Source: a bacterium (GTDB lineage Bacteria; UBA8248). Taken from it: a stretch of 64,000 nt of DNA. The stretch spans positions 512,001-576,000 of the forward strand of contig OZ253442.1 in assembly GCA_965261085.1 (NCBI GenBank), read 5' to 3'. Positions 3,017 through 60,127 of the stretch are shown here, piece by piece (the first letter of the stretch is position 1; each line of letters starts with the position of its first letter). Made by a program: the position numbers and the translations under genes. The notes under the pieces were generated by a model. That model was not told the origin of the DNA. It was given only the letters and a program-made list of their open reading frames with translations, and did no database searches.

Positions 3017-3194
3017 CACACACTCCTCTTTCCGCAAAATGTCCGCGGTTCGCTCTTCGGTTTGATTATCAGCGTGGAACAAAGATATGATCCTCAGCGC
3101 TTACATTCAACCCGAAAACCCGCATTCGCGCGACTTGAAACCGGGCGTTCATCCGCTCCGGCGCATACCGAATGCGGCCCAAAGGAGGACATTC

Positions 3195-4482: not shown

Positions 4483-5106
4483 ATGTCTCTATCTCAAGCC
4501 ATTTCGCAAGCCAAAGACTTAGGAATATGGCTGCAAGAAAAAACAAACGGCAGAAACTTCGCTGTTGATAGAAGGGGAAAAGTGGCAGTAGCCCTCTTGC
4601 AGCACTCTTTGGATGTCGCCGACGCGATTATCATTTTAGCGACTAAACTGCCAGGACCTGCTTTGGCGCTTGCGAGGCCTCTATTGGAAAGTTTTGTTCG
4701 TGGTGTTTGGATGTTGAAGTGCGCGACTGATGAACAAATCGAGCGATTTGCCGAGGGGAACCCTCCAGGGTTTTCTGACTTATTACAGGCAATGAACGAT
4801 GACGACACAGCGAAAATTCATGCTTCTTGGATTCGCCAAAATATGGCAGCAAACAAAAAGTATTTTCACGATTTCACTCATGGCGGGATTAAACACGCCC
4901 TGCGGCGGATAGGCGAAACTGCGATTGAGCCAAACTATCCTGAACATGAACTGGAATACTTGGTAGGACTTGTAATCGAAACTTATATTCGCGTTGGTTA
5001 CGAGCTTTTTCTTTTTCTGGACGACAAAGAAGTAATTAAACAACTTGATGAAAAAATATCTACTCTTTCTCGCTCCCCTATCGAACAAGGTAATTCGCTG
5101 GAATAA
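4483..5106 (+). CDS. Hypothetical helical protein (DUF5677/DUF6988-like), AT-rich
   Basis: 207-aa ORF with ALALARPLLESFVRGVW and FHDFTHGG motifs; visibly lower GC than its neighbours. Confidence 0.65.
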   Translation: MSLSQAISQAKDLGIWLQEKTNGRNFAVDRRGKVAVALLQHSLDVADAIIILATKLPGPALALARPLLESFVRGVWMLKCATDEQIERFAEGNPPGFSDLLQAMNDDDTAKIHASWIRQNMAANKKYFHDFTHGGIKHALRRIGETAIEPNYPEHELEYLVGLVIETYIRVGYELFLFLDDKEVIKQLDEKISTLSRSPIEQGNSLE

Positions 5107-11526: not shown

Positions 11527-11528
11527 GC

Positions 11529-13715: not shown

Positions 13716-13719
13716 GGCC

Positions 13720-16641
13720 ATGGCGGCGATAGACGACATCATCAGGCAAATCCGGGGCAGACCCTTCGAGGCGGGCGCCCATCGTTCGCTCTCGCTCCAC
13801 GACCCCGAACAAGTCTACCTCGTCGCACAAGGGCATCTGGATATATTCACGGCCGAGTTCAAAGGCGAGGAGGTAGTGAGCCGAAGGCCCTTCACGACCC
13901 GCATCCCCGAGGGTTCGATAGGCTTCGGCGCGCCGCGCGCAAGCGGCGTGGAATCTGATTTCGGTTTCCTGGCCGTGCCGTCTCAGAACGCGGTTATCGT
14001 CGAGGGAGAGCGCGAGGGCCTGACCGAGGAGGGCATTTTCGACATCAACCTCATCCTCTCGCTCGACGAGTGGGTCTCGCGCCTTTCCGAGCTTCTGGTT
14101 CGCGCCTCACCACCGGTCTCGCGAGACGCCATGCTGCTCGAAGCCGACCCGGACGTGCCCTATCCGGGGGGCGCCACGCTGAGCGCGCACCACTCCGACG
14201 TCGTATGGATTTCGGCCGACCAGCCGGTGCGGCTCATGGGGCGTGAGGAGATGGTCCTGCCGGCGGGCGAGGTCTTGCCGCTTTGCGAGCGCACCTGGGT
14301 CGAGACCGGCGAGAAAGAAACCAGGGTGTCGGCCTCTCACACGCCGCGCCTCCTTGTCGACGAAATGCTCTGGCCCGCTCTCTACCGCTTCAGCGAGTCG
14401 ATTCTGCTCTACGCGGGAAGGATGCGCGAGGAGAGCGCCGCCGCCCTGAGCGAGCGTCATGAGGAGGTCCGCGAAGCCCATAGCGCCGCGGGCCGGATCG
14501 CGCGGTGGAACCTCGGAGGGGTGCTGGGGTCCGCCGAGGAGGAACGCGCGCGCGATGCGACCGGCCTCGCCGCCGCCGAGGCGGCGATGAGCCTCGTCGC
14601 CGAGTCGGTCGGCGCGGAAATCAATTTGCGCGGGGGGGAGGAGAAAAACGATGACCCGCTACAGGCTTTTGAGACGATTGCGCGCCGCTCCGGCGTGAGC
14701 GCCCGAGAGATCGCCCTCGCCCCTGATTGGTGGAAGCACGACGGTCCCTCCTTCGCCGGGGTGACAAAAGACGGGAAAAGCCCGATTGCCGTGCTCTCGA
14801 ACGGAGGCGGCCGCTATACCGCCGTCGATCCGGCGACGAACCACTCCTACGCCGTCGGGCGCCGCAACGCCGCCCAGATCGAAAACCGGGGCGTGATGCT
14901 CTATGCGCCTTTCAAGGCTGAGGTCCGCGACGGGTCCTCGGCGCTGCGCGACGTGATGCGCAGGCGAACGAGAGACATCCATAGCATGTTCTCCATGAGC
15001 CTGCTCGCAGGCCTGGTGGCTCTCGTGACGCCGCTGCTGACCGGGCGCCTGCTCGCCGACATCATCCCGCGCATCGACATGCCGATGTGGATCGCCGCCC
15101 TGGGTGCATTGCTGTTCGCCGCGCTGGGCGCCACCGCCTTCCAACTGGTGCGCTCCTACGCGATGCTGCGCGTCGAAGGGCGGCTGGGCGAAGATCTGCA
15201 AAGCGCTCTATGGAGCCGGCTGCTGGCGCTCTCTGTGAGATTTTTCCGTCTGTATTCCGCCGCCGATCTGGCCGACCGGCTGGGCGGCGTGACGCGGATG
15301 CGGATGATGCTGGCGGGCGGGGCCATGAACGCCATCATGAGCGGCATTTTCTCCGTCTTCAGCTTCGCCCTGCTGCTCTACTACAGTTGGCGACTCGCGC
15401 TCGCCGCCGCCACGATGGTATTGGCGCTGCTGCTGGCGAGCGCCCTCTTCTCCTATTTGCAAATGAAGCGCCATCGCGCAGCCTTTGCGATGAAGGGCAC
15501 CATCGACGCGACGATCTTCCAGACCATCACCGGCCTCGCCAAACTCCGCATGGCGAACGCCGAGCCCTACGTCCTCGCGCGCTGGGCCGAACAATTCGCC
15601 GGGCAGCAGCGCGAAACGCTGAGCGCGCGCAAATGGGCGGCGGCCCAGTTCGCCTTAAACGGCCTGTTCATCCCGATGGCCTCATTCGTGCTGCTCGCCA
15701 TGATCTGGCATCTGCTGGTCGACGCCGCCTCGCCCGCGTCGTTCGGCCTGCTCGACTTCCTCGTCTCCTTCACCGCCTTCGGGCAACTGGCGGGGGCGAT
15801 GGCGGGGCTGACGGGCGCGGCGGCGACGGTGATCGCCGTGATTCCCCTCTTCGAGCGCGTGAAGCCGGTGCTCGAGGCGGAACCGGATACCGCCATGGGT
15901 GACATCGATCCGGGGGATTTGACCGGCGAAATCGAACTCTCCGGCGTCTCCTTCCGCTATCACCCCGATGGCGAAAACGAGCTGACGAACATATCGCTGC
16001 GGATTGAGCCGGGCGATTACGTGGCGATCGTCGGCGCGTCGGGTTCGGGCAAATCGACCATCTACCGCTTGCTCCTCGGCTTCGAGCGTCCCGATTCGGG
16101 AGCGATATTATTCGACGGCCATGACTTGTTGAGCCTCGACCTGGGCGCGGTGCGCAGCCACATGGGGGTCGTCCTCCAGAACGGTCAACTCATCGCCGAC
16201 AGCATCTACAGCAACATCGCGAGTTCTTCGCAGTTGAGCATGGAGGACGCATGGGCGGCCGTGCGCGCGGCGGGTCTCGAAGAGGATGTCCAGGCGATGC
16301 CGATGGGGCTGCACACGGTGCTCCACGAGGGAGGCGGCGGACTCTCCGGCGGCCAGAAACAGCGCCTGCTCATCGCCCGGGCGCTTGCCCGCAAGCCTCG
16401 CATCCTGATGTTCGACGAGGCGACCAGTTCTCTGGACAACCGCACCCAGGCCATCGTTCAGGAGGCGCTGGGCAAGCTGAGCATCACGCGCCTGGTGATC
16501 GCCCATCGGGTGAGCACCGTGCGCGAGGTCGACCGCATCTACGTGCTGGACAAAGGCGGGATCGTCGAGAGCGGAAACTACAACGAACTCATGACCATAG
16601 ACGGCGCTTTCGCGAAACTGGCCAAACGCCAGTTGACGTAA
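13720..16641 (+). CDS. NHLM-type ABC transporter permease/ATP-binding subunit with long N-terminal extension and no C39 cysteine
   Basis: GASGSGKS, LSGGQKQ, MFDEATSSLDN; third member of the canonical trio. Confidence 0.9.
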   Translation: MAAIDDIIRQIRGRPFEAGAHRSLSLHDPEQVYLVAQGHLDIFTAEFKGEEVVSRRPFTTRIPEGSIGFGAPRASGVESDFGFLAVPSQNAVIVEGEREGLTEEGIFDINLILSLDEWVSRLSELLVRASPPVSRDAMLLEADPDVPYPGGATLSAHHSDVVWISADQPVRLMGREEMVLPAGEVLPLCERTWVETGEKETRVSASHTPRLLVDEMLWPALYRFSESILLYAGRMREESAAALSERHEEVREAHSAAGRIARWNLGGVLGSAEEERARDATGLAAAEAAMSLVAESVGAEINLRGGEEKNDDPLQAFETIARRSGVSAREIALAPDWWKHDGPSFAGVTKDGKSPIAVLSNGGGRYTAVDPATNHSYAVGRRNAAQIENRGVMLYAPFKAEVRDGSSALRDVMRRRTRDIHSMFSMSLLAGLVALVTPLLTGRLLADIIPRIDMPMWIAALGALLFAALGATAFQLVRSYAMLRVEGRLGEDLQSALWSRLLALSVRFFRLYSAADLADRLGGVTRMRMMLAGGAMNAIMSGIFSVFSFALLLYYSWRLALAAATMVLALLLASALFSYLQMKRHRAAFAMKGTIDATIFQTITGLAKLRMANAEPYVLARWAEQFAGQQRETLSARKWAAAQFALNGLFIPMASFVLLAMIWHLLVDAASPASFGLLDFLVSFTAFGQLAGAMAGLTGAAATVIAVIPLFERVKPVLEAEPDTAMGDIDPGDLTGEIELSGVSFRYHPDGENELTNISLRIEPGDYVAIVGASGSGKSTIYRLLLGFERPDSGAILFDGHDLLSLDLGAVRSHMGVVLQNGQLIADSIYSNIASSSQLSMEDAWAAVRAAGLEEDVQAMPMGLHTVLHEGGGGLSGGQKQRLLIARALARKPRILMFDEATSSLDNRTQAIVQEALGKLSITRLVIAHRVSTVREVDRIYVLDKGGIVESGNYNELMTIDGAFAKLAKRQLT

Positions 16642-24665: not shown

Positions 24666-26003
24666 TTAGCTGTAACGCCGTTTAAGTTTGTTCCACTGCT
24701 TGGTTAGGGTCTTGAGCGTGCCCTCGATGTCGGCCTGACCCAGGATCGCCTTGTGGACGCGCGGACGCATGTACTGATCCCACTCGGCGTACCACACGGC
24801 CTTCTGCCCGTCCTTGGGCTTGCTGAGCGCCATCTGGCTCTCGAACAGCTTCGCTTCGCCCCATTTGTTCGCCGCCGCGATGATGTCGGGGTCCTTGAAC
24901 AGCGGCGCGTGGCCGAAGCCCAGCCCGAAATCGGTGAACCACTTCTTCGCGGTGCGGTAGGTGCCCGACTTGTCCTTGCCGCCCAGGAAGTCCACCATCT
25001 TCCAGGCCATCGCCTTGCGCGCAGGGTCCTTCGCGGCCGAGGCGGTCATGCTGTAGGCCCGAGTCCAGCCGCAAACGTGTGGCTTGGCGTTGTTGGCGGT
25101 GGGTATGAGGGCCATCTTGATCTTGCCGGCCACCTTGGAGGATTTGGGTTCGTTCGCCGCCCGCAGCCGGTAGTTCGGCAGGATGGCGAAGCTGCCCGTG
25201 CCGCTGCTGAAGGACTTGAGCGCGGCGACTTCGTTGAGCTCCATGAAGCCGGGCTGCGTGATCTTGTGCTTCTTGGCCGCGTCGATGATCCACTGGATGG
25301 TCTGCGCCGCGGCGGAACCCGGTTTGTCGTAGTTCATGACGTTGTATTTCTCGTCGACGAACCTCCCGCCCCGGCTGTACATCATGGTGAAGAGCACCTC
25401 GCCCATCCAGAAGTCGGCTTTCAGGAACTGGAGGAAAGGATACTCCTGAATCCCCTTGCTCTTGATCTGGAGGCTCTGCTGGACCACCTCGTCCCAGGTC
25501 TTGGGAGGAGCGCCGATGCCCGCTTTCTCCAGATGCTCCTCGTTGTACAAGAACGCCATGTGGCCCACATAGTAGGGTAGGCCGTAGAGCTTGCCGTTGT
25601 AGGTGAGCGCATCGGCGGTCGGGCCGATGAACTCTTTTCTGTACTCGTCCACCCTCGGGAACTCGTCGATGGGATACAGCCAGCCCGCTTCCACGAACTC
25701 GGCGAGGTGTCCGTCGATCATATAGATGACGTCTAGGGGGGTTTTACCCGAGAACTTCACGACCAGGGCGTCGTGGTACTTGCTGCCCGGCGTGTTGCCG
25801 TAATTGATCTTGACCTTGGCGAGTTTCTCGAATTCGGTGATGCGCTGCTTCACGAAGCTGATGCCGTAGGTCCAGCTATAGAAGTTGAGCGTTTTCACCA
25901 TCGCCGCCGAGGGCGTCGCCCGCGAGACGGGCAAGGCCAGGGCGGCCGTTCCAAGTGCGGCATTGCGAAGGAGTTTCCGACGACTCAATCCGAGTTCTTT
26001 CAT
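24666..26003 (-). CDS. Extracellular solute-binding protein (family 1) with Tat signal
   Basis: SRRKLL twin-arginine motif, GKLYGLPY, PKTWDE; GGAGG RBS before 26003. Confidence 0.92.
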   Translation of the reverse strand: MKELGLSRRKLLRNAALGTAALALPVSRATPSAAMVKTLNFYSWTYGISFVKQRITEFEKLAKVKINYGNTPGSKYHDALVVKFSGKTPLDVIYMIDGHLAEFVEAGWLYPIDEFPRVDEYRKEFIGPTADALTYNGKLYGLPYYVGHMAFLYNEEHLEKAGIGAPPKTWDEVVQQSLQIKSKGIQEYPFLQFLKADFWMGEVLFTMMYSRGGRFVDEKYNVMNYDKPGSAAAQTIQWIIDAAKKHKITQPGFMELNEVAALKSFSSGTGSFAILPNYRLRAANEPKSSKVAGKIKMALIPTANNAKPHVCGWTRAYSMTASAAKDPARKAMAWKMVDFLGGKDKSGTYRTAKKWFTDFGLGFGHAPLFKDPDIIAAANKWGEAKLFESQMALSKPKDGQKAVWYAEWDQYMRPRVHKAILGQADIEGTLKTLTKQWNKLKRRYS

Positions 26004-26288
26004 GGTCAACCCTCCATCGTCGCCCAAGGAGAACTTGCGCTCCCCGTGGCACGGGCGATCCGCCATCGGGGGCAGAACCAAACCATAACGTCAAACCAGA
26101 AACCCTAAGCCGGGTCTCTCGGTTTACTCGGATAATAAGGCGAAGAGATGGGAGGTTGCGTTCCCCAGCCAGGAGGCGAAACGGGTCAAGAAGGTCCTGG
26201 AGGAGACGATGCTACCGGTTCGCGATTCCCACTCTCCAGCGCTCAAAAATCCTCAAACAACCTTACATGGTCTTACAAGTATGGAAAA

Positions 26289-26317
26289 ACCCTAGCAGGG
26301 TTTCCCCGGGCTGTCAA
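26289..26317 (-). promoter_or_regulatory. Possible sigma70 promoter of the sugar ABC operon
   Basis: TTGACA-17-TAGGGT with extended TG on the minus strand. Confidence 0.45.
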
Positions 26318-26388
26318 TTTTGCGCTTTTCGGCAGGTCCCGGGAATCCCCGCCCGGCGGACCGTCGCCCAAGAACCGGGGTTCACAGC

Positions 26389-26781
26389 CTACCCGCGCGA
26401 TACGAGTTCGATGCTGATGTCGTCCGGCCCCCGGATGAAGGCGATTTTCATACCCGGGCCGATCTCCCACGGATCGCAGATGAAATCGGCCCCTTTCGCG
26501 CGCAGGTCGCTCTCGGCCTTGTCCATGTCGTCGACGACGAGGCCGAAATGGTCCAGTCCGTAGCGGGGGTCGCTCGTCGTGTGGACGGGGTTTTCGCCCT
26601 CCGCGCGTCCTGAAACCAGAAAGTGCATTCCGTTCAGATCGAAGCTGAAAAGAGGCGAGCCGCCCAGGTCGCCCTCGTCCACCACCCGCGCTCCGAACAT
26701 CTCCTCCCAGAATTTTCTGGCGGCGTGGGGGTCTTCGCTTCGAAAGTGCAGGTGATCGTAACCGTAGGTGGGCATGGACAT
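26389..26781 (-). CDS. VOC/glyoxalase family protein
   Basis: YDHLHFRS, LDHFGL, FIRGPDDISIEL. Confidence 0.88.
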   Translation of the reverse strand: MSMPTYGYDHLHFRSEDPHAARKFWEEMFGARVVDEGDLGGSPLFSFDLNGMHFLVSGRAEGENPVHTTSDPRYGLDHFGLVVDDMDKAESDLRAKGADFICDPWEIGPGMKIAFIRGPDDISIELVSRG

Positions 26782-26862
26782 CGTTTCCCCTCCAGAAAAA
26801 GTGAGCCGAAAAGAGGAGGTCCCCCCTCTCGCCTAACCGGTCGAACGTGTATAGATAGCTGA

Positions 26863-26893
26863 ATTATAGAAGCGTCCCCGGCGGGATTGTCAA
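26863..26893 (-). promoter_or_regulatory. Sigma70-like promoter upstream of the VOC gene
   Basis: Consensus TTGACA and TATAAT on the minus strand with a 19-bp spacer. Confidence 0.45.
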
Positions 26894-26962
26894 GAAGGGA
26901 GATCCGGGTTTGAGACAGAAATCCGTGTTAAGGCATGGGCGGAGATGAGACACTGCGCCCCC

Positions 26963-27340
26963 TCAACCCCCCGGCAGGATGACGTAGAGGTCCTCCCCGT
27001 CGACTTCCACGGGAAAGCGCTGGACTTTTCTCCTCCGGTTGGCGAGGCATTCCCCGGTTCTAATCTCGAACTCCCAGCCGTGCATGGGGCACGCGACGAC
27101 GTCCGCCTCATCGCGCGCGTAATGCTCGCGCACCCTGCCGTCATCCTCAACGTAAGCCGTCACCTCGCGAAAGAGGTTCCCCGAGCAGACGGGGCCTTGC
27201 TGGTGGGGACACTTATCCTCCAGCGCGAAAAACCCGTCGCTCAGCCGGAATATCCCGAGCTTAAAGCCCTCCAGTTCGAGGCGAATCCGATCGCCGGGGC
27301 CTATCTCGGACGCCCGCGCCGCCCAGAGCCTCCGCGCCAT
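26963..27340 (-). CDS. Rieske [2Fe-2S] ferredoxin
   Basis: CPH and CPMH motifs followed by GWEF; ATG overlaps the upstream stop (TAATG). Confidence 0.92.
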   Translation of the reverse strand: MARRLWAARASEIGPGDRIRLELEGFKLGIFRLSDGFFALEDKCPHQQGPVCSGNLFREVTAYVEDDGRVREHYARDEADVVACPMHGWEFEIRTGECLANRRRKVQRFPVEVDGEDLYVILPGG

Positions 27341-28485
27341 TAAGCGCTCACCTCTAAATTCACGGTCTGCTCCGTGAAGCGGAAGACGCCGAGCGCGTTC
27401 TCGCCCATTATCTTCCGGCGGCCCGCATCGCTTAAGAAGGGAAGATCGGCGATGGCCGAGGGTTCGTCGTAATCGAAATGGGGCCAGTCGCTCGCGAACA
27501 GGAAGGTGTTCTCCGCATCGAGTATCTCGAAGAACATCCGGAGTTGTTTTCTCGGCATCTCCTCCATCGGCTGGGTGCCGAAGTAGAAATCCTTGATGTA
27601 TTCGCTCGGCAGCTTTCTGAGCAGGGGGGCCTCCACCCGCCGTCTCATGTATTCGGTGTCCAGGCGGTACATGAGGCCCGCCACCCAGGTGATGCCGCTT
27701 TCCTGAAAAACGATCTTGATATCCGGGAACCGCTCGGGCACGCCCTCCATCACCATGCTCACCAGTTGCACCTGGTTGCACCACGTCATATCCAGCGCGT
27801 GGCTCTCGACGAAGGAGGGAAACTTGGCGAAGCTCGAAAGGTCCGGCCCCAGGAAGTTCGCGTGCAAGACGATGGGTAGCCCGTGTTGCTGCGCCGCCTC
27901 GTAGATGGGGTTGTACGCCTCGGACCCTAAGGGAAGCTCCACGCTTCCGAGCATCTCCACCCCGCACACGGCGGGCTCTCCCGCCACGCGGTCTATCATC
28001 TTCGCTGCGCGCTCGGGGTCGCGCCCCGAGGCCACCAGCAGCGTGTAGACGCCGGCTTCGGGCGCGCACACGCCGTCGAGCATATAGTCGATGTAGCCGT
28101 TGCAAATATCCATCGCGTGGTTCGGGTTGCGCACGAACTCGACCATGAGCATGTAGGTGGGAATCATGACGATGGTGTCGATGCCGAAGCGCTCCATCAC
28201 GACGGGGATGTCGGCGGGACTGGACATGCCGAGCATCTCGTCCTGATCCCCTTTGCCTGCTTCGGCGCCCCGCACGGTGCGGCCGTGGAGCATGACGTCG
28301 TACTGATCCCCCACCAGGGCCGGCATGTGGTATTGCCCGCTCCAGTCGGCGAAACGCTCGGCGGCGGGGCCTTTCAAGTATTTTGCGAAATCCCGGATTT
28401 CCTCGAGATAGTGCGCGTCGGCGTCCACGACGTGCATTCCCCGATAGCCCATGACTTTCTCCTCGAGCTTCCAGTCGATTTTCAT
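27340..28485 (-). CDS. Amidohydrolase-2 (TIM barrel) protein, candidate dinuclear metallo-oxygenase
   Basis: VVDADAH, VLH, QESG, FASDWPHFD. Confidence 0.88.
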   Translation of the reverse strand: MKIDWKLEEKVMGYRGMHVVDADAHYLEEIRDFAKYLKGPAAERFADWSGQYHMPALVGDQYDVMLHGRTVRGAEAGKGDQDEMLGMSSPADIPVVMERFGIDTIVMIPTYMLMVEFVRNPNHAMDICNGYIDYMLDGVCAPEAGVYTLLVASGRDPERAAKMIDRVAGEPAVCGVEMLGSVELPLGSEAYNPIYEAAQQHGLPIVLHANFLGPDLSSFAKFPSFVESHALDMTWCNQVQLVSMVMEGVPERFPDIKIVFQESGITWVAGLMYRLDTEYMRRRVEAPLLRKLPSEYIKDFYFGTQPMEEMPRKQLRMFFEILDAENTFLFASDWPHFDYDEPSAIADLPFLSDAGRRKIMGENALGVFRFTEQTVNLEVSA

Positions 28486-28558
28486 AGAGTCTTGTCGATG
28501 ATAGCATTCCCCTTAATTCCTGAACACGCTGGCGAACACTTCATTCTGAGGATTTCCC

Positions 28559-29770
28559 ATGAACGATGAAAAAACCGCGCACATGCCGCTTGCGGGCGTG
28601 CGGGTCGTGGACATCTCGAACTATCTGGCGGGGCCGCTCTCGACCATGTATCTCTCCGATTACGGTGCTGAGGTCGTCAAGATCGAAAACCCGAAGGGCG
28701 GAGACCCCATGCGCCTCTGGGGCCACAACAAAAACGGCGTGGGCCTCTACTACAAGATGATCAACCGCAACAAGAAAAGCGTGACGCTCGACCTGAGAAC
28801 CCCCTTCGGCGTGGAGGCGGTCAAAAAACTCGTGAAAGAGGCCGACGTCGTGGTGGAGAACTACCGCACCGGCGTGCTCGAAAAATGGGGGCTGGACTAC
28901 GAGGCGCTCAAAGAGGTAAACCCCGCCGTCATCATGCTCTCCATCACGGGATTCGGCAGAACGGGGCCTTATAAGAACCGCCCCGGTTTCGGCTCTCTGG
29001 CCGAGGCTTTCGCGGGCTTCAGCCACATCAACGGCTACGCGGACGGCCCGCCCCTGAGCCCCTCCTGGGGGCTGGGGGATTGCTCCACGGGCATCGCGGC
29101 GGCGTTTTTGGTGATGGTCGCCCTGTTCGAGCGCGAGCGAAGGGGCGGCGCGGGCCAGCAAATAGATCTGGCGATTTACGAGCAGTTGCTCACCATGCTG
29201 GGCCCCCAGGTAATCTATTACGATCAACTCGGCTTCATCCAGGGCAGAAGCGGCTCGCGCCTCGAGTTCGCGGTGCCCAGAAACAACTTTCAGACCGCAG
29301 ACGGCCAGTGGGTGCTCATCGCTGGCTCGAACCAGTCCATCTTCGAGAACATCTGCAAGGGTCTGGGGCGCGAAGATTTAATCGCAGACCCCAGGTTCGC
29401 GAACAACCGGGAACGCATGAAGAACGCGGACGCCATCGAAGAAGAACTCCAGAAGACGCTCAAGACCCTGACGCTCGATGAGGTGATGGAGCGATTGACG
29501 GCCTTCGAGGGCGCGGCCACCCCCATCAACAACGTGGAGATGGTGGTGGAGAACGAGCAGGTCATCGCGCGCGGGAACATCACCGAGGTGGAGGATGCGG
29601 AACTCGGAGGCCCGGTGCGGATGCAGGAGGCCTTCGGCAAGCTATCGCGCACGCCCGGCAAGGTCCGCCACGCGGGCGAGCCTTTAGGCAACAGCAACCG
29701 CGAGGTATTGAGTGATCGCCTGGGCTACTCGGAGGAAAAGCTCAAAAGCGAGGGAATCGACTTAGGCTGA
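28559..29770 (+). CDS. Family III CoA transferase (CaiB/BaiF)
   Basis: PLAGVRVVD, GAEVVKIE, NRNKKSVTLDL, VENYR. Confidence 0.95.
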   Translation: MNDEKTAHMPLAGVRVVDISNYLAGPLSTMYLSDYGAEVVKIENPKGGDPMRLWGHNKNGVGLYYKMINRNKKSVTLDLRTPFGVEAVKKLVKEADVVVENYRTGVLEKWGLDYEALKEVNPAVIMLSITGFGRTGPYKNRPGFGSLAEAFAGFSHINGYADGPPLSPSWGLGDCSTGIAAAFLVMVALFERERRGGAGQQIDLAIYEQLLTMLGPQVIYYDQLGFIQGRSGSRLEFAVPRNNFQTADGQWVLIAGSNQSIFENICKGLGREDLIADPRFANNRERMKNADAIEEELQKTLKTLTLDEVMERLTAFEGAATPINNVEMVVENEQVIARGNITEVEDAELGGPVRMQEAFGKLSRTPGKVRHAGEPLGNSNREVLSDRLGYSEEKLKSEGIDLG

Positions 29771-34027: not shown

Positions 34028-35011
34028 TCAGACGGAAACGCCAAGCGCCTTGCGGACCGCGGCGATGACTTTCTCCGTGCTGGGGAGCACGAATTTTTCG
34101 AGTTTGGTCTGAACGGGTATGGGCGCCATGAGCGCGGCGACGCGCCCGATGGGGGCGTCCAGGTATTCAAAAACCGATTCCTGTATGGTGGCTGAAATCT
34201 CGGCCGCCACCCCGCTTCTCAAGTGGCCTTCTTCCACGATGACGCAGCGGCTCGTCTTGCGCACGGAATTCGTGATGGTCGCAACGTCCAATGGCGAGAG
34301 CGAGCGCGGGTCGATGACTTCGCAATCTATCCCCTCTCCCGCCAGAGCCTCCGCCGCCTCCAGGCAATGGCGCATCTGGTAGCCGATTCCCACAATGGTG
34401 ACGTCGCCTCCTTCGCGCTTCACGTCGGCCACCCCGATGGGGATGGTGTAATCGCCTTCTGGCACCATTTGTTTCGTCTTTTGCGCGTAGAGCAGCCTGT
34501 GTTCGATGAACATAACGGGGTTGTCATCTCGAACGGCGGCCTTGAGCAGCCCCTTGGCGTCGGGCGGGCAGCTTGGATACAGGACTTTCAGTCCCGGCAC
34601 CTGCATGAACCACGCCTCGAGCGATTGTCCGTGCGTCGCGCCATACTGAAGGCCCGCGCCGCTGGGTATCCTCGCCACCATGGGAACGGAAAGCTGTCCG
34701 CCCAGCATGTAGCGGAGTTTCGCCGCCTGGTTCACGATGGGATCCAGCGCATAGGTGGCGAAATCCATGAAACGCAAATCCACGATGGGCCTGAAGCCCG
34801 CCATCGCCGCGCCCACGCCCGCCCCCGTGAAGCCGAGTTCACAGATGGGCGTATCGCGCACCCGGTCCCGTCCGAAGCGATCGGCCAGCCCCGCGCACAC
34901 GCCGAAATAATCGAACACCACGTCCTCGCCCATCAGGAAGACTTTCTCGTCGCGCTCCATCTCCTCATGGAGCGCCTCGTTCAAGGCTTCGACATAGGTG
35001 CGTTCCGGCAT
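34028..35011 (-). CDS. ThDP-dependent dehydrogenase E1 beta subunit (AcoB/PdhB-like), copy 2
   Basis: MGEDV, RDTPICE, NQAAK, THGQSLE. Confidence 0.94.
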   Translation of the reverse strand: MPERTYVEALNEALHEEMERDEKVFLMGEDVVFDYFGVCAGLADRFGRDRVRDTPICELGFTGAGVGAAMAGFRPIVDLRFMDFATYALDPIVNQAAKLRYMLGGQLSVPMVARIPSGAGLQYGATHGQSLEAWFMQVPGLKVLYPSCPPDAKGLLKAAVRDDNPVMFIEHRLLYAQKTKQMVPEGDYTIPIGVADVKREGGDVTIVGIGYQMRHCLEAAEALAGEGIDCEVIDPRSLSPLDVATITNSVRKTSRCVIVEEGHLRSGVAAEISATIQESVFEYLDAPIGRVAALMAPIPVQTKLEKFVLPSTEKVIAAVRKALGVSV

Positions 35012-35022
35012 TTCAAAATTCC

Positions 35023-35991
35023 TCAGGCGAAAATGTCCTCGAGCGCCACGCTTTCATCGGGCTCGGGGCTGTTCTCCGCAAACTCGACCGCTTGGCTTAT
35101 CTCCGCTTCCACCGCATCGGCATGCGCTTTTTTTTGCTTCTCCGTCATCTTGAGCATATTCTCGCACACGATGAGTGGGTCTCTTTCTTTCCACTCCTGC
35201 CATTCCTCTTTCGTGCGGTACACGCCGTAGTGCGGATCGCCGCGCGAGTGGCCGAAAAACCGGTACGTCTTCGCTTCGATCAGGCTCGGACCTGCGCCGC
35301 GCCGCGCGTGGGCCACGGCCTCGCGGCTCGCCTCGTACACCGCCACCACGTCCATGCCGTCCACCGTCAGGCCGGGGGCGTCATAACCTTTCGAGCGCAC
35401 ACTGATGTCGTCGACTGAGGTGGAATACTCCGCAGGCACGCTGACGGCGTACTGGTTATTCTCGCAGAAAAAGACGACCGGCAGCTTCCAGATGGCGCAC
35501 AGGTTCATCGCCTCGTGAAACGCCCCGTTGTTCGAAGCCCCGTCGCCGAAGAAAACCACCGCCACGCGGTCTTTCCCCTCGAGTTGATACGCGAGGCCGA
35601 TGCCCGCCGCCATCGGCATGTTCGCGCCCACGATGGAATGCGCGCCGTAGTGGCCCCTCGATACGTCGGCGATGTGCATCGAGCCACCTTTGGAGCGGCA
35701 AAGGCCGGTCACCTTTCCCATCAGCTCGGCCAGCATCTCGGGCAGGCGCGTTCCCTTGGCGATGGAGTGGCCATGCCCCCGGTGAGTGGTGAGCACGGCG
35801 TCATCTTCTCTTAAGGCCGCGCACACGCCGGCCGAACACGCCTCCTGCCCGATGCTCACGTGCACCCCACCCACCACCTTGCCCGCCATGTAGAGATCAT
35901 CCGCCGTCTCCTCGAAGCGGCGGATTCTCAGCATGGTGCGATACATTTCGCCCAATCGTTTTCGGGACAACCTGGAAGTCGACCTGGCCAA
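35023..35991 (-). CDS. ThDP-dependent dehydrogenase E1 alpha subunit (AcoA/PdhA-like), copy 2
   Basis: HVSIGQEA, THRGHGH, KGGSMH, GDGA...N ThDP motif, GHS; probable TTG start. Confidence 0.93.
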   Translation of the reverse strand: MARSTSRLSRKRLGEMYRTMLRIRRFEETADDLYMAGKVVGGVHVSIGQEACSAGVCAALREDDAVLTTHRGHGHSIAKGTRLPEMLAELMGKVTGLCRSKGGSMHIADVSRGHYGAHSIVGANMPMAAGIGLAYQLEGKDRVAVVFFGDGASNNGAFHEAMNLCAIWKLPVVFFCENNQYAVSVPAEYSTSVDDISVRSKGYDAPGLTVDGMDVVAVYEASREAVAHARRGAGPSLIEAKTYRFFGHSRGDPHYGVYRTKEEWQEWKERDPLIVCENMLKMTEKQKKAHADAVEAEISQAVEFAENSPEPDESVALEDIFA

Positions 35992-36001
35992 GACAAACCC
36001 T

Positions 36002-36973
36002 CTAAGAAAGTATCTTTTTCGCCGCCGCAACGATTTTCTCCGTGCTGGGCAGGACGATAGCTTCCAGTTTCGTGTGAACCGGCACGGGAACGTCGAGAGC
36101 TGCTACGCGAATAATAGGAGCTTCGAGCGCGCTGAAGGCCACCTCCTGGATCGAGGCGGCTATTTCAGCACCCACCCCGCCGCTCTTGTGCCCTTCTTCG
36201 GCAATGACGCACTTGCCCGTCTTCCGGACTGAGGCCGCAAGCCCTTCCACGTCCAAGGGGTTGATGGTTCTGGGATCCACCACTTCGGCGTCGACGCCCT
36301 CCTTGGCGAGTACATCCGCCGCCTCCAGGCAATTGCGCGCCTGGCTTCCCACCCCGATGAGGGTAATGTCCGAGCCCTCTCTTTTCACCGCCGCCACCCC
36401 GATGGGCTCGGTATGATCCCCCTCCGGCTCGGGGCCTTCCAGGGAGTAGAGCGCGCGGTACTCCACGAAGAGCACGGGGTTGTCCTCCCTGATGGCGGAT
36501 TTCAAAAGCCCCTTCGCGTCCGCGGGGTCGCTCGGCACGATGACGCGCAGCCCCGGCACCTGGATGAACCAGGCCTCGAGACACTGGCTGTGCGTCGGGC
36601 CGTTCTGGGAGCCGCCGCCCTCGGACGCCCTGATCACCAGGGGCACGCTCACCTGGCCGCCGAGCATGTAGCGCAGCTTTGCCGCCTGGTTCGCGATGGG
36701 GTCGATGGCCAGCATCATGAAATCGATGCGCCGTATGTCGAGCACGGGCCGGTAGCCCGCCATCGCGGCGCCGACGGCGGCGCCGGTGAAACCCAGTTCG
36801 CTGATGGGCGTGTTGCGCACGCGCTCGTGTCCGAACCTGTCGCCCAGGCCCGCCGTGGCGGGAGAGATGGAAGAAAGCGTCACGTCCTCACCCATCAGGA
36901 ATACTTTTTCATCGCGCTCCATTTCCTCATGGAGCGCCTCGTTAATCGCAGTCGAAAATGAAATCGTACGCAT
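36002..36973 (-). CDS. ThDP-dependent dehydrogenase E1 beta subunit, copy 1
   Basis: RNTPISE, NQAAK, THSQCLE. Confidence 0.94.
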   Translation of the reverse strand: MRTISFSTAINEALHEEMERDEKVFLMGEDVTLSSISPATAGLGDRFGHERVRNTPISELGFTGAAVGAAMAGYRPVLDIRRIDFMMLAIDPIANQAAKLRYMLGGQVSVPLVIRASEGGGSQNGPTHSQCLEAWFIQVPGLRVIVPSDPADAKGLLKSAIREDNPVLFVEYRALYSLEGPEPEGDHTEPIGVAAVKREGSDITLIGVGSQARNCLEAADVLAKEGVDAEVVDPRTINPLDVEGLAASVRKTGKCVIAEEGHKSGGVGAEIAASIQEVAFSALEAPIIRVAALDVPVPVHTKLEAIVLPSTEKIVAAAKKILS

Positions 36974-36980
36974 CTTCACC

Positions 36981-37949
36981 TCAGGCGTATAGATCCTCAT
37001 ACACATCTTCGGGTTCAGGCTCGGGACTTTGCCGCGCGAAGGCGAGCGCATCTTTCAACTCATCCTCCACCGCTTCTAAGTGCGCTTTTTTCTGCGCATC
37101 GCTCACGCCGAGTATTTCCTCCGCCACGAGCAGGGGGTCTTTCGCCTTCCACTCGTTCCACTCATGTTCCGTCCGGTACGGCCCGAACTGCGGGTCTTTT
37201 CTCGAATGGCCGAAATACCGGTAGGTTTTCGCCTCGATCAGGCTGGGCCCAAGGCCCCTCCTCGCGCGATCCACGGCCTCGACCATCACCTCGTAAACCG
37301 CCAGCACGTCCATGCCGTCCACGGTCACGCCGGGAATATCGTACCCGCCCGCGCGCGCGCTGATGTCCGCCACCGAGGTGGCGTACCCCACCCGGGTGCT
37401 CGAGGCGAAATGGTTGTTCTCGCAAAAGAAGATGACGGGGAGTTTCCATATCGAGGCCAGATTCACCGACTCATGAAAGCTGCCCTCGTTCGCTGCGCCG
37501 TCGCCGAAAAAGACGACGGCCACCTGGCCCTTTCCCTCGAAATGAAAGGCGAGGCTGATTCCCACCGCCATCGGCATGTTCGAACCCACGATGGAATGCG
37601 CGCCGTAGTGGCCCTTCGATACGTCGGCGATATGCATGGAGCCGCCCTTGGCGTGGCAAAGGCCGGTCGCCTTGCCCAGAAGTTCCGCCATCATCTCGGG
37701 CAGACGCGTGCCCTTGGCGATGGAATGGCCGTGGCCCCGGTGGGTGGTGAGAATCGCATCGTTATCCTTAAGCGTACTGCACGCGCCGACCGAGCAGCCC
37801 TCCTGCCCGATACTCACGTGGATGCCGCCCACGACCTCCCCCTTATCGAACAACTCGAACGCCGTTTCCTCGAACCTTCGTATGCGCAGCATGTCGCGGT
37901 ACATCCCCTGCATGCGCTCATCGCTCAAAGACGCTTTTTCTTCAGCCAA
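36981..37949 (-). CDS. ThDP-dependent dehydrogenase E1 alpha subunit, copy 1
   Basis: HVSIGQE, THRGHGH, GDGAANEG, ENN; TTG start after AAGGAG. Confidence 0.93.
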   Translation of the reverse strand: MAEEKASLSDERMQGMYRDMLRIRRFEETAFELFDKGEVVGGIHVSIGQEGCSVGACSTLKDNDAILTTHRGHGHSIAKGTRLPEMMAELLGKATGLCHAKGGSMHIADVSKGHYGAHSIVGSNMPMAVGISLAFHFEGKGQVAVVFFGDGAANEGSFHESVNLASIWKLPVIFFCENNHFASSTRVGYATSVADISARAGGYDIPGVTVDGMDVLAVYEVMVEAVDRARRGLGPSLIEAKTYRYFGHSRKDPQFGPYRTEHEWNEWKAKDPLLVAEEILGVSDAQKKAHLEAVEDELKDALAFARQSPEPEPEDVYEDLYA

Positions 37950-38035
37950 AAGGTATTCTCCTTCACGCGGGAAGATGGTTTTTTTCTCGTCCGGAGGCCC
38001 TAAGGTTCTCACAAATCACCCCGTCGGGCCAGCGC

Positions 38036-38443
38036 TCAACCGGATTTCGCCTTCTCTTCCTCGGCCTGCTCGTCGGCGATGCGCTTAAGAGCGTAGAGAC
38101 CCTCCATCAACACGGGCGCGCCGCCGCCGATGCTCGCCACCTCGAACGCCTCGAGCGCCTCTTCCATCGTCGCGCCCAGGCGCAGCGCCTTTTTCGTGTG
38201 GGTGTAGACCTCGTGCTTCATGCCCTTGAAGGCGAGGAGGCCGATTTCGATGAGTTCGCGCGTCTTGGGCTCCAGATGGCGCGGCTTCTCCTTGAAAAAC
38301 CCCCAGTGCATCTCTGAGTAGACCTCGAAATAATCCGGGTCCAGTTGCGCGCCGAAGCCGAGCACGTCATACACGAACCCCCTGTCGCCATGAATCTTCT
38401 CCGTTATGCGCTTTACCTTTTCTTCTCTGGTTTCTTCCGCCAT
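38036..38443 (-). CDS. Carboxymuconolactone decarboxylase (CMD/AhpD-like) family protein
   Basis: LEPKTRELI, HTKKALRLGATMEE; no CxxC. Confidence 0.85.
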   Translation of the reverse strand: MAEETREEKVKRITEKIHGDRGFVYDVLGFGAQLDPDYFEVYSEMHWGFFKEKPRHLEPKTRELIEIGLLAFKGMKHEVYTHTKKALRLGATMEEALEAFEVASIGGGAPVLMEGLYALKRIADEQAEEEKAKSG

Positions 38444-38516
38444 TTTCTTCTCCTTATGGGAACAAGATAAAGGCGGAGGTCTCCGAGCCAGGATACCCCC
38501 GCCTGAAAAAGCAGTC

Positions 38517-39701
38517 CTACGCCGAGGCGAACCTGTCCATCCACCAGTCCGCAATCCAATTGCCGCACATCGCCAGATTGTCGAACACGCAGTGCTGGCT
38601 CCCGCCGTCCTCGACGGTGAAAATTTTGAGTTCTTTTTCTTTCGAGCCGCACGCCTCATAGAGCCTGTAGGCCATATCGACCGGCACGATGTTGTCGTCC
38701 TGCCCGTGGGTGATGCAGATGGGCATGCGTATCTTCTCCGCGACGCCCGCCAGCGTATAGGCCCTGCATTTTTCCATCGCGGAATCCATGTCCGGCGTCC
38801 CGAGCACCCACGGCAACTGCCAGATGGCCGAAGAGGAGATGGTGCCGCCGCTCTCCAGCACCTTTCTCCTGTGCTCCCAGACTTCGTGATAGTCGAAATG
38901 CGCCCCCCAGGTGAGACACGCCGCGTAGCGGTGCTCGAAAGCGGCGATGCGCGGCGCGTAGTAGCCGCCCATGCTCATGGCCATGAGGCCGATGCGCCCA
39001 GAATCCACCTCGGGGCGCGCGTCCAGATAATCGAACGCCGCCGTTCCTGCCACTTCGTAATCGAACCTGCTCGGTATCTTCCGGAGCCTGAGGGTCTCGC
39101 CCTGCCCCGGCCCATCCACGCAGAGCACCCCGACGCCGCGCTCTATCAGGGCGAGCGCGCCCCACAAAACGGTAATCTCCTTCGAGCCGTCCAGTCCATC
39201 GAAAAAAGCGACGTAAGGATCGCTGCCCGTCGGGTTTTTCGGCGGAAGCAGGTACGCCGCCAGCGGCCCTTCTTGGTAGGGAACTTCCACGCGCTCGAAC
39301 CCGGGAACGCGGTATTTCATCCCCTTCTCGTAGTGGGGCAGGAGTTTTTTGTAGGAATCCGATTTCCTCGGGTCCTCGGGATGAACGAAACGCTCGCTCG
39401 CGTAGCGATAAATCGCGCATCGCACAAAAGCCGCCATGGAGGTCCGCTCATGGCCCCTGCGTTCCTCGTCCTCGGCAAGGGCGAGCGTTTTGTCGGCCAT
39501 CCAGGCCCAGGCGTCGTGCCAGGCCTCGGCGTCGCCCGCCCGTCCGCTCAACTGCTTGCCGATCTGATCCAGTTCGTGGAAATTCGAGCCCCCCATCGGG
39601 GTAATGTTGATTTGCCCGCTCATCAACTGCGACCAAAGATAGTGCTCGGGGAAATACCGGAACCATGAACCGATTACGTTCTCTACCGCCATTACCGCCA
39701 T
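38517..39701 (-). CDS. Alpha/beta hydrolase, DHPON hydrolase/FrsA-like (paralogue 3)
   Basis: WFRYFPEHYLWS, FDGLD, DGPGQGE, AMSMGGYY, QHC. Confidence 0.88.
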   Translation of the reverse strand: MAVMAVENVIGSWFRYFPEHYLWSQLMSGQINITPMGGSNFHELDQIGKQLSGRAGDAEAWHDAWAWMADKTLALAEDEERRGHERTSMAAFVRCAIYRYASERFVHPEDPRKSDSYKKLLPHYEKGMKYRVPGFERVEVPYQEGPLAAYLLPPKNPTGSDPYVAFFDGLDGSKEITVLWGALALIERGVGVLCVDGPGQGETLRLRKIPSRFDYEVAGTAAFDYLDARPEVDSGRIGLMAMSMGGYYAPRIAAFEHRYAACLTWGAHFDYHEVWEHRRKVLESGGTISSSAIWQLPWVLGTPDMDSAMEKCRAYTLAGVAEKIRMPICITHGQDDNIVPVDMAYRLYEACGSKEKELKIFTVEDGGSQHCVFDNLAMCGNWIADWWMDRFASA

Positions 39702-60040: not shown

Positions 60041-60127
60041 CGTGGATACCCGCAAGGCGGAAAGTATTTTCATCCTTCATATTATAGACGATGAACGGCC
60101 CCTACTTGGTAAATGAACAAACGGATT

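Follow-up and report, generated by a model that had tools for sequence, protein, structure and literature searches.

Homologues of the protein discussed here are named in databases as 'amidohydrolase family protein' or 'predicted TIM-barrel fold metal-dependent hydrolase', and the question raised by this locus is whether a protein so named, whose gene overlaps that of a Rieske ferredoxin, is a hydrolase at all. The window (the whole stretch of bacterial DNA that was analysed, 64,000 nucleotides) contains both genes on the reverse strand, and the analysis leads to the answer that the "amidohydrolase" is almost certainly an O2-activating two-metal oxygenase fed by the adjoining Rieske protein. 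It is referred to below as the ARO, for the 'amidohydrolase-related dinuclear oxygenases'. The elements of the pair are the following:

27340..28485, reverse strand: ARO gene, with the translation read; longest ORF of 381 aa; PF04909, 3.5e-29
ARO product: predicted metal ligands D23, H25, H208, E262, D333 and H336, with D338 in the second sphere
ARO product: γ residues γ1 A24, γ3 A331, γ4 F337 and γ5 Y339
28459..28464, reverse strand: ribosome-binding site GAGGAG, 6 nt before the ATG of Met12 (28452-28450)
26963..27340, reverse strand: gene of the Rieske [2Fe-2S] ferredoxin, predicted electron donor; 125 aa; PF00355, 5.2e-13
Rieske product: ligands C44, H46, C84 and H87 (C44-P-H46 and C84-P-M-H87), with a third conserved cysteine, C52
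27338..27342, reverse strand: TAATG overlap, where the ARO stop TAA (27342-27340) and the Rieske ATG (27340-27338) have one base in common
27349..27354, reverse strand: ribosome-binding site GAGGTG, 8 nt before the Rieske ATG and within the 3' end of the ARO gene

The true start of the ARO is probably Met12 at 28452, giving a product of 370 aa, since GAGGAG precedes this ATG and the database protein 99% identical to the ARO is 370 aa long, as is another one 83% identical; inspection of the sequence upstream of the ATG at 28485 revealed no GAGGAG-like site. A 514-aa ORF at 26963..28507 was considered as a fusion protein and rejected, because it is not in the frame of the ARO gene and resembles a Rieske protein only over its final 125 residues: in this G+C-rich DNA the Rieske frame simply meets no stop across the upstream gene.

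The ARO matches PF04909 (Amidohydro_2) in Pfam with 102.9 bits (cut-off 26.4), and no NCBIfam model matches it. Its translation contains D21-A-D23-A-H25, H208 within IVLHANF, E262-S-G264 and S332-D333-W-P335-H336-F-D338. The DxDxH, central His, ESG and SDWPHFD motifs of a first-pass annotation of this DNA, and the TAATG stop/start overlap that it described, are thus all read in the sequence. In an alignment of 74 sequences, formed by the query and 73 of the 120 homologues listed, ten of these positions (D21, D23, H25, H208, E262, G264, D333, P335, H336 and D338) are invariant in 74/74, which indicates that the motif features are not due to chance. In the available text of PMC13154177, AROs are defined by an N-terminal D-x-H and, after ~200 residues, a C-terminal D-x-P-H-x-D/E, and the characterised PF04909 hydrolases and decarboxylases described there carry neither motif. 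In the present protein we find the PF04909 TIM-barrel fold, D-x-H, D-x-P-H-x-D/E, and the central His and strand Glu, which would bring the predicted site to three His and three carboxylates.

Sequence matches in the PDB, the best of which are orphan AROs, SfbO and AibH2 and span overall E values from 4.3e-52 to 3e-30, comprise 8sm7 (4.3e-52, over residues 19-370), 8sm6 (SfbO, 1.9e-40), 8sm8 (9.1e-36) and AibH2 (2.2e-32). Weaker matches are PtmU3 (3.1e-7) and the decarboxylases (5e-11 to 9e-4), LigW (5.4e-11) and ACMSD (2.4e-5) being among the latter. Pairwise alignment places H25, H208, E262 and D333-x-P-H336-x-D338 opposite identical residues of 8sm7, the last of these motifs being identical also in SfbO, 8sm8 and AibH2. 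H208 and E262 lie opposite a His and a Glu in 8sm7, SfbO and AibH2, and E262 faces a Glu in 8sm8 too. D23-A-H25, which sits in a predicted strand (20-26), aligns with D-V-H of 8sm7 and 8sm8. By reference to the published description of the SfbO site (PMC10811679), H208 and E262 may well act as metal ligands. The model of the ARO (pLDDT 89.6, pTM 0.90) finds ARO chains at all of Foldseek ranks 1-20 (TMt 0.77-0.88), the best being 8sm7 (TMt 0.87, 31% identity), with decarboxylases below rank 20 (TMt 0.67-0.78). For the fold itself, the comparison with solved AROs gives TMt 0.85-0.88.

The Rieske partner has a feature of its own, the 37 residues that separate H46 from C84, as already counted in the first-pass annotation between CxH and CxxH. 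When compared with biphenyl dioxygenase ferredoxin (2e4p), residues 55-77 of the query face only chain residues 54-56, which amounts to ~20 inserted residues by comparison with Rieske ferredoxins of the usual kind. In the model this insertion forms a β-hairpin at approximately residues 55-83, with strands 55-64 and 70-83 (pLDDT 95.4). By fold the protein comes closest to ferredoxins of oxygenases, namely CarAc, T4moC and BphA3 (TMq 0.66-0.74); among the top fold matches, of 102-114 residues and covering ~70% of the model, no solved Rieske ferredoxin with such a hairpin was found. The idea that this spacing is peculiar to the present gene was rejected, because CxH and CxxH lie 34-38 residues apart in 65 of the 67 ARO-linked Rieske ORFs, and the long spacing characterises the partner ferredoxins as a family. 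The 51 aligned partner ferredoxins share C44, H46, G49, P50, G54, C84, P85, H87 and G88 as invariant residues.

The linkage on which the first-pass annotation had made its reading depend is kept among homologues, with a same-strand Rieske ORF at 67 of 80 homologue genome loci and no Rieske ORF at 13/80. The ARO and Rieske ORFs abut, with a gap of 0-1 bp, at the nearest of these genome loci (L001-L005, L008, L010 and L011). Of 18 genomes from the same genus, 12 have the locus. Among seven metagenome loci analysed, five have a Rieske ORF, the two lacking it (L085 and L089) being short contigs. A third protein of roughly 100 residues occurs in 50/80 more distant cassettes, whereas the coupling of ARO and Rieske genes is direct here, without a third protein. 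Modelling of the ARO-Rieske complex, also suggested in the first-pass annotation, gave a median ipSAE of 0.71 (runs of 0.71, 0.76 and 0.66) against 0.00 for the best of three controls; 0.71 is a mark reached by 116/157 solved complexes and 2/215 mismatched pairs, in a calibration that is rough for custom alignments such as those used here. The runs have at least 76% of contacts in common, with a partner pLDDT of 91. The modelled interface comprises ARO residues 66, 68-71, 309, 337-341 and 343-344 and Rieske residues 46-49, 54-55, 57, 83, 85-88 and 90, and the model supports a placement of the Rieske cluster loops on the ARO metal loop. This agrees with the AlphaFold3 picture of SfbO and its ferredoxin in the available part of PMC13154177, where γ5 is seen between the clusters of the two proteins. 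No ARO-Rieske complex was present among the PDB matches of the sequence and fold searches with both proteins.

Motifs, sequence and fold thus show that the protein belongs to the family, and to these come the conserved linkage of the genes and a supported docking model. Altogether, the published motifs of the family, the rankings by sequence and by fold, the Rieske gene kept beside the homologues and a model of the complex whose controls are clean make the 370/381-aa protein very probably a Rieske-coupled, low-potential L-type ARO with the partner ferredoxin as its donor, and they uphold the first-pass proposal of a two-metal oxygenase akin to PtmU3 and AibH rather than a hydrolase.

The AROs were named in 2024 by a logic of Rieske neighbours, with 3,307 Rieske-linked candidates (PMC10811679), and membership later rose to ~17,000 according to the accessible text of PMC13154177. 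Single-subunit AROs such as SfbO are already solved and assayed (PMC10811679). Published work (2021-2026) therefore already covers the class, its forms with one subunit and the use of Rieske neighbours to find it, and the ARO-Rieske pair is not a new kind of system; the ARO is an uncharacterised new member. Its closest solved relative is 8SM7, an entry titled 'G. y4 TruffO'. PMC10811679, which names a candidate of Geobacillus strain Y412MC10 (UniProt D3EI84), describes 8SM7 as an orphan found via its Rieske neighbour, and the D3EI84 candidate is classed as an L-ARO in the text available of PMC13154177. Both proteins are single subunits with a DxDxH start, a central His, an E-x-G strand and an S-D-[YW]-P-H-[WF]-D-[FY]-D loop, but 8SM7 has Val at γ1 (IIDVDVH) where Ala is found here, identity is ~31%, and no function can be transferred because 8SM7 is itself an orphan.

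SfbO, the sulfonate β-monooxygenase of Litorilinea aerophila (PDB 8SM6, 9BUA), works with the Rieske ferredoxin SfbR and catalyses O2-dependent C-H hydroxylation (PMC10811679). It resembles the present ARO in its single subunit, neighbouring Rieske gene, same six-ligand site, aromatic γ4 and γ5, and the position of γ5 at the docked interface. On the other hand, γ1 and γ2 differ, and the sulfonate-binding R232 and R235 lie opposite A230 and M233 here; the sulfonate substrate of SfbO was rejected for the present ARO, both binding arginines not being conserved, and a different substrate is expected. The AibH1H2-AibG-AibF system of Rhodococcus wratislaviensis (PDB 6M1W, 8FUL-8FUO) hydroxylates 2-aminoisobutyrate (PMC7782822, in its accessible part). 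Its catalytic AibH2 (E 2.2e-32), Rieske gene in the operon and O2-dependent hydroxylation of an aliphatic C-H bond at a Mn/Fe site make it comparable, but the same source describes a heterotetramer with a non-catalytic amidohydrolase-fold subunit and an operon reductase, AibF, in contrast with the single ARO gene found here. These AibH1H2-type features, the second degenerate amidohydrolase-fold subunit and the operon reductase, are absent from the window, where Pfam detects no second PF04909 gene; AibG has 169 aa and the present ferredoxin 125 aa.

PtmU3, the diiron hydroxylase of platensimycin (PDB 6OMP-6OMR, an H-type ARO), shares D-x-H, D-x-P-H-x-D/E and the fold (TMt 0.75), but it is distant (E 3.1e-7). 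In the available text of PMC13154177 it has Ser at γ1 and a metal-binding Glu ending the C-terminal motif, and its class is largely devoid of Rieske neighbours, whereas the last motif residue is Asp here and a Rieske gene is coupled. Judged by sequence, the CoA-ester enzyme PtmU3 stands much further from the present ARO than AibH2, SfbO and 8SM7 do. The non-redox decarboxylases (LigW 4ICM, ACMSD 2WM1 and γ-resorcylate decarboxylase 2DVT) share the PF04909 TIM-barrel (TMt 0.67-0.78) but, as described in PMC10811679 and the accessible part of PMC13154177, use one metal or none and lack both ARO motifs. LigI and LigJ are further members of this non-redox group of decarboxylases and hydrolases.

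In the alignment, γ1 is Ala in the query and in 62/74 homologues, and I108, a hydrophobic residue, lies opposite the γ2 Thr of SfbO in a pairwise alignment made without superposition. On the octanol scale Ala is slightly positive, that is, hydrophilic. This scale is the measure of hydrophobicity applied to γ residues in the text available of PMC13154177, where γ1 of characterised L-AROs, the Mn-using type, is hydrophobic (Val or Ile) and γ2 hydrophilic. Because of Ala at γ1 and I108 opposite the SfbO γ2 Thr, the ARO sequence does not seem to follow clearly the three-residue rule for Mn dependence given in that text. The fourth and fifth residues look familiar: γ4 is aromatic in 63/74 aligned sequences and γ5 in 74/74 (here F337 and Y339), and in the same partial source the Rieske-linked L-AROs have an aromatic γ4 (Table 1) and a usually hydrophobic or aromatic γ5 at the ferredoxin interface.

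Metal occupancy, O2 chemistry, the direction of electron flow, substrate and reductase are parts of the scheme that we infer as follows. The TIM-barrel would hold two metals (Mn/Fe or Fe2), site 1 being formed by D23, H25 and H208 with E262 and D333 among the bridging carboxylates, and site 2 by H336, while D338 would hold a metal-bound water. The Rieske H46 and C84-P-M-H87-G loops would dock on F337-D338-Y339 of the ARO, and the ferredoxin would hand over two electrons singly. The reduced cofactor would then bind O2 and oxidise a C-H bond in some small organic compound that the cell imports. Hydroxylation is the likeliest outcome, and spontaneous dealkylation may follow it. The reductase serving the ferredoxin would depend on NAD(P)H and have its gene elsewhere. 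In this regard, a Pfam scan of the 62 ORFs of the window found no ferredoxin-reductase domain, in agreement with the first-pass annotation. The host genome encodes four AROs and three partner ferredoxins, the other three AROs lying more than 1.4 Mb away, and inspection of the four neighbourhoods found no reductase linked to any of them. No PF14759-type ferredoxin reductase is present in the genome (96.27% complete), whose single PF00175 protein lacks a ferredoxin domain and lies at ~3.124 Mb, 2.6 Mb off.

A first alternative keeps the ARO and its Rieske donor but gives the net reaction as oxidative decarboxylation, desaturation or N-/O-dealkylation via an unstable hydroxylated intermediate. 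The content of the locus fixes no reaction outcome, and the published repertoire is wide: PMC10811679 and the available part of PMC13154177 describe hydroxylation (AibH1H2, PtmU3, DitZ) and the dealkylation of PIPES by SfbO through collapse of a hemiaminal, and the latter adds oxidative decarboxylation by BarH, LynB7, DolJ and E0U9F9. The oxidative decarboxylases named there are H-type AROs without Rieske partners, however, and the assayed Rieske-associated and closest relatives, AibH2 and SfbO, both begin with C-H hydroxylation, so this alternative is doubtful.

A second alternative concerns the substrate and requires the neighbourhood to be considered:

28559..29770, forward strand: family III CoA-transferase, PF02515, 3.1e-117; divergent, 73 bp from the longest ARO ORF
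26863..26893, reverse strand: TTGACA-19 nt-TATAAT with perfect hexamers, read directly, between the Rieske stop and the VOC gene
26807..26831, reverse strand: G+C-rich hairpin followed by a T-run, ~130 nt past the Rieske stop
26389-26781: gene of a VOC/glyoxalase-fold protein, next after the Rieske gene

The hairpin could end a two-gene transcript, which its position fits; it is the sole site of this kind in 26000-28700 against 2.3 expected in shuffles, a count that alone is not significant. The promoter scan accepted spacers of 16-18 nt only and hence did not list the 19-nt site, a putative promoter that hints at a separate transcription unit for the VOC and ABC-transporter genes. Among the 80 genome loci the Rieske gene is the sole conserved neighbour: homologues of the CoA-transferase occur in 8, of the enoyl-CoA hydratase in 11 and of the FAH-family gene in 6, and those of the VOC and solute-binding genes in two, both near-identical genomes. 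Copies 42-38% identical (Alicyclobacillus, haloarchaea) are flanked by IclR, RraA-like, MFS, SDR, aldehyde dehydrogenase and ThDP enzymes. Neighbours other than the Rieske gene thus vary between loci, and no substrate can be called from them.

In the first-pass annotation the substrate was said to be possibly CoA-linked, given the divergent CoA-transferase; on this alternative it would be a CoA thioester made by that enzyme, as for PtmU3. The adjacency itself holds, since the gene lies 73 bp off on the other strand, keeps the same place in loci 83-98% identical (L001, L002, L084, L085 and L088) and is followed by an HMG-CoA-lyase-like gene (287.9 bits against an NCBIfam subfamily cut-off of 246). 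That subfamily excepted, NCBIfam gives only sub-threshold matches to the neighbours, and the CoA-transferase falls below all equivalog cut-offs. The wider claim is weak: the CoA-transferase is found at just 8/80 homologue loci and, among close relatives, stands beside copies 83-92% identical but not beside those 76% and 71% identical (L086 and L087), in the first of which the ARO gene comes after OppB/OppC-type permease genes with a 20-bp gap. Moreover, PtmU3 is a distant H-type relative, and the CoA-transferase and lyase could equally act downstream of the oxidation. A CoA-linked substrate is accordingly improbable, and the CoA-transferase is kept as context only, not as a demonstrated part of the system. 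Finally, one might read the ARO as a common non-redox PF04909 enzyme whose site takes a single Zn or Mn ion, be it a decarboxylase, a hydratase or a hydrolase, and its Rieske neighbour as unrelated. The hydrolase-type names of homologues, the zero NCBIfam matches and the lack of a nearby reductase are in line with this, but such a reading is scarcely credible when both ARO-specific motifs are invariant, the solved AROs 8sm7, SfbO, 8sm8 and AibH2 outrank decarboxylases, and a translationally coupled Rieske gene is kept at 67/80 loci with a complex model that passes controls.

Within the preferred reading of a Rieske-coupled ARO, a bolder proposal, possible though rather unlikely, is that of a distinct clade with γ1 Ala, direct ARO-Rieske coupling without a third protein and no dedicated reductase. 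The published predictor of Mn versus Fe2 would not cover such a clade, whose cofactor is perhaps intermediate or cambialistic. Its substrate would be an imported compound, either peptide-like or an organic acid, and the oxidised product would pass to FrsA-like hydrolases or to the CoA-transferase and HMG-CoA-lyase-like enzyme. What the locus adds to the ARO field is small: a sizeable clade with Ala at γ1, a position tied to metal preference in the text available of PMC13154177, and a two-gene minimal form as compared with three-gene forms carrying a small extra protein. The presence of four AROs and three ferredoxins in one genome without a recognisable dedicated reductase sharpens the question of who reduces such ferredoxins. 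Automatic annotation as an amidohydrolase or metal-dependent hydrolase hides an oxygenase, and the right name alters the reading of the catabolic island in which it lies.

The gene pair proposed in the first-pass annotation, with its TAATG overlap, was confirmed on the minus strand, where sequence inspection and a sequence scan also revealed nearby signals:

27340..28485 (-): ORF of 381 aa, Pfam PF04909 (Amidohydro_2), 3.5e-29, a predicted amidohydrolase-related dinuclear oxygenase (the window ARO)
26963..27340 (-): Rieske ORF of 125 aa, 3' of the ARO ORF, Pfam PF00355, 5.2e-13
27342-27338 (-): TAATG, stop TAA and start ATG with one base in common
26893-26863 (-): TTGACA-19 nt-TATAAT, perfect hexamers, 5' of the hairpin and the VOC gene
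26831-26807 (-): hairpin and T-run between the Rieske and VOC genes (sequence scan)

A GAGGTG precedes the Rieske start by 8 nt and a GAGGAG lies 6 nt 5' of the Met12 ATG (28452) of the ARO gene, with no comparable site in the sequence upstream of the ATG at 28485; database proteins 99% and 83% identical to the window ARO are 370 aa long, and the true start is probably Met12 (28452). The TTGACA-TATAAT element was missed by a consensus promoter scan because of its spacer length. Given this element and the hairpin between the Rieske and VOC genes, the ARO-Rieske pair may constitute a two-gene transcription unit.

The motifs listed in the first-pass annotation are all found in the window ARO: D21-A-D23-A-H25, H208, E262-S-G264 and S-D333-W-P-H336-F-D338. 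AROs were named by Liu et al. 2024 (PMC10811679), the source of the 8sm-type structures, who found them through PF04909 genes adjoining small Rieske genes. In Liu et al. 2026 (PMC13154177), the superfamily is defined by two motifs, N-terminal D-x-H and C-terminal D-x-P-H-x-D/E, both present here, and comprises about 17,000 members, 3,307 of them obtained via Rieske neighbours; it is split there into 'L' (low-potential, Mn-using, Rieske-linked) and 'H' (high-potential diiron) enzymes. A literature search for further characterised AROs found the family name itself in only three papers. A phmmer search of the PDB with the window ARO placed five dinuclear oxygenases at the top of the ranking.

PDB matches of the window ARO (phmmer E values)
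8sm7: orphan ARO, 4.3e-52
8sm6: SfbO, 1.9e-40
8sm8: orphan ARO, 9.1e-36
6m1w_B / 8ful: AibH2, 2.2e-32
8sm9: orphan ARO, 3e-30
4icm: LigW decarboxylase, 5.4e-11
6omp: PtmU3, 3.1e-7
2wm1: ACMSD, 2.4e-5

The fold gave a similar order: with the AlphaFold2 model (pLDDT 89.6, pTM 0.90) as query, Foldseek ranks 1-20 were all ARO chains (TMt 0.77-0.88), followed by decarboxylases and PtmU3 (TMt 0.67-0.78). Moreover, D21, D23, H25, H208, E262, G264, D333, P335, H336 and D338 are invariant in all 74 aligned sequences, namely the query and 73 of the 120 homologues listed, fragments and many near-duplicates having been left out by hand.

Regarding metal preference, the rule in PMC13154177 requires for Mn-dependence a hydrophobic residue at γ1, a hydrophilic one at γ2 and an aromatic one at γ4. 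The γ4 residue of the window ARO is Phe (F337), aromatic as in this rule, whereas γ1 is Ala (A24) instead of the Val or Ile of the characterised L-AROs (PMC13154177). Ala is also frequent among relatives, with γ1 being Ala in 62, Cys in 8, Ser in 2, Phe in 1 and Ile in 1 of the 74 aligned sequences, while of the best 80 of at least 605 loci 49 have Ala there, 15 Ser and 5 Cys. On the octanol scale, Ala is slightly hydrophilic.

In the Rieske protein the cluster ligands lie in C44-P-H46 and C84-P-M-H87, with 37 residues between. Homologue loci were taken from genome contigs as the best 80 of at least 605 confirmed ARO matches, and their ORFs were searched with an iterated profile seeded with the window Rieske protein. 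In 67 of these 80 loci the search detected a Rieske ORF, in every case on the same strand as the ARO gene; in the other 13 it detected none. A simple pattern gave a CxH-to-CxxH spacing of 34-38 residues in 65 of the 67 linked Rieske ORFs, the exceptions being locus L052, in which the pattern had no match, and locus L031, in which it picked up an earlier CxH. The 37-residue spacing singled out by the first-pass annotation is thus present, and as a family trait seen in partner ferredoxins generally. In 51 aligned partner ferredoxins C44, H46, G49, P50, G54, C84, P85, H87 and G88 are invariant, and conservation reaches at least 90% at C52 and W86; position 86 is Met in the window Rieske protein. 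In its model (pLDDT 95.4) the extra residues fold as a β-hairpin (strands 55-64 and 70-83). Among solved structures, the closest folds belong to ordinary oxygenase ferredoxins 102-114 residues long (CarAc, T4moC, BphA3 and TodB), which cover about 70% of the model and therefore lack the hairpin.

Modelling of the complex, as suggested in the earlier annotation, gave with both alignments three runs at 0.71, 0.76 and 0.66 (median 0.71) versus 0.00 for the best of three controls. In the calibration of the tool, 116 of 157 solved complexes attained this mark, as did 2 of 215 mismatched pairs, counts that are only rough with self-made alignments. At least 76% of contacts were common to the runs, with a partner pLDDT of 91. 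The modelled interface comprises the cluster loops of the Rieske protein (46-49, 54-55, 57, 83, 85-88, 90) and ARO residues 66, 68-71, 309, 337-341 and 343-344, including γ4 F337 and γ5 Y339. The same geometry is described in PMC13154177 for an AlphaFold3 model of SfbO with SfbR. Sequence and fold searches with both proteins returned no solved ARO-Rieske complex; the predicted model supports a putative binding between the two proteins.

As the first-pass annotation indicated, no reductase was found among the window ORFs scanned. The genome has a single FNR-like protein, far from the pair, and PF14759 is absent from it (96% complete). Three further ARO genes occur on its contig C1:

about 3342459-3343646 (+): ARO gene
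3387440-3388585 (-): ARO gene
2034242-2035354 (-): ARO gene

They carry D-x-D-[VI]-H and D-Y-P-H-W-D motifs, and no reductase lies beside them; near two of them there are Rieske genes whose spacing is 32 residues. Neighbouring genes encode TRAP/TctC transporters, an amidase, a cupin and an enolase-superfamily protein, or else a LysR regulator.

The window pair is placed in a catabolic island. Upstream lie a divergent family III CoA-transferase, an HMG-CoA-lyase-like gene and OppB/OppC-type permeases; downstream, on the minus strand, a 130-aa VOC protein and a CUT1-type ABC transporter (solute-binding protein, two permeases, MalK-like ATPase). Among the best 80 of at least 605 loci this neighbourhood is kept in near relatives only. 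In metagenome loci the CoA-transferase is kept beside an ARO copy 83% identical, and OppB/OppC stands directly 5' of a copy 76% identical. Both copies (L085, L086) have, directly beside the pair, FrsA-like hydrolases 62-77% identical to the first two of three window paralogues, all FrsA-like/S9-type α/β-hydrolases:

3087-4370 (+): first paralogue
8528-9712 (+): second paralogue
38517-39701 (-): third paralogue

This arrangement hints at a functional link between these hydrolases and the ARO-Rieske pair. The sulfonate-binding arginines of SfbO (PMC10811679) are not conserved in the window ARO.

Elsewhere in the window, two tandem 2-oxoacid dehydrogenase E1 α/β pairs are followed by a carboxymuconolactone-decarboxylase-family gene (34028-38659, -), with no E2 or E3 component among the ORFs scanned against Pfam. 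What looks like a peptide/bacteriocin export module (10294-16641, +) comprises an HlyD-like protein, a C39-peptidase ABC exporter and an ABC protein of 1012 aa whose N-terminal extension is long. At 57583-59231 (+), PADLOC candidate defence proteins are matched by an AAA_21 ATPase (PDC-M56A, 3e-140) and the overlapping ORF after it (PDC-M56B, 2.4e-45), beside a DDE transposase (54694-56136) and FGE-sulfatase-domain ORFs (56297-57139, -; 59291-60073, -); a DUF6988 protein (4483-5106, +) matches the candidate single-gene system PDC-S52 (2.4e-17).

In 50 of the best 80 of at least 605 loci (within L009-L079) the pair comes with a conserved protein of about 100 residues, which lies between the ARO and Rieske genes, in either gene order, in all 30 loci checked, for example:

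L043:7270-7602: protein of about 100 residues
L077:8901-9254: protein of about 100 residues

Its C-terminus reads T-A-T-E...L-x-A-x-N-L-x-x-F-[DE]-L-[AG]-[LM]-W-like. Neither the window nor its closest loci (L001-L008, L010-L014) carry this protein, and it is absent from all ORFs of at least 70 aa of the window's own genome at E up to 0.01; the window locus is thus a minimal two-gene form.

Of 18 same-genus genomes searched, 12 carry an orthologue at least 91% identical to the window ARO; another has only an 87% identical fragment of residues 8-76 (G001:C1:75132-75338), probably what is left of a lost gene. Outside the genus, the best match in 12 genomes has 37% identity and was seen in 4 of them. 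The gene is therefore accessory within the genus. Altogether, motifs, sequence and fold ranking, Rieske linkage and the complex model support the initial reading of a dinuclear oxygenase with a Rieske donor, with the window ARO as an uncharacterised new member of an enzyme kind in print since 2021-2026.
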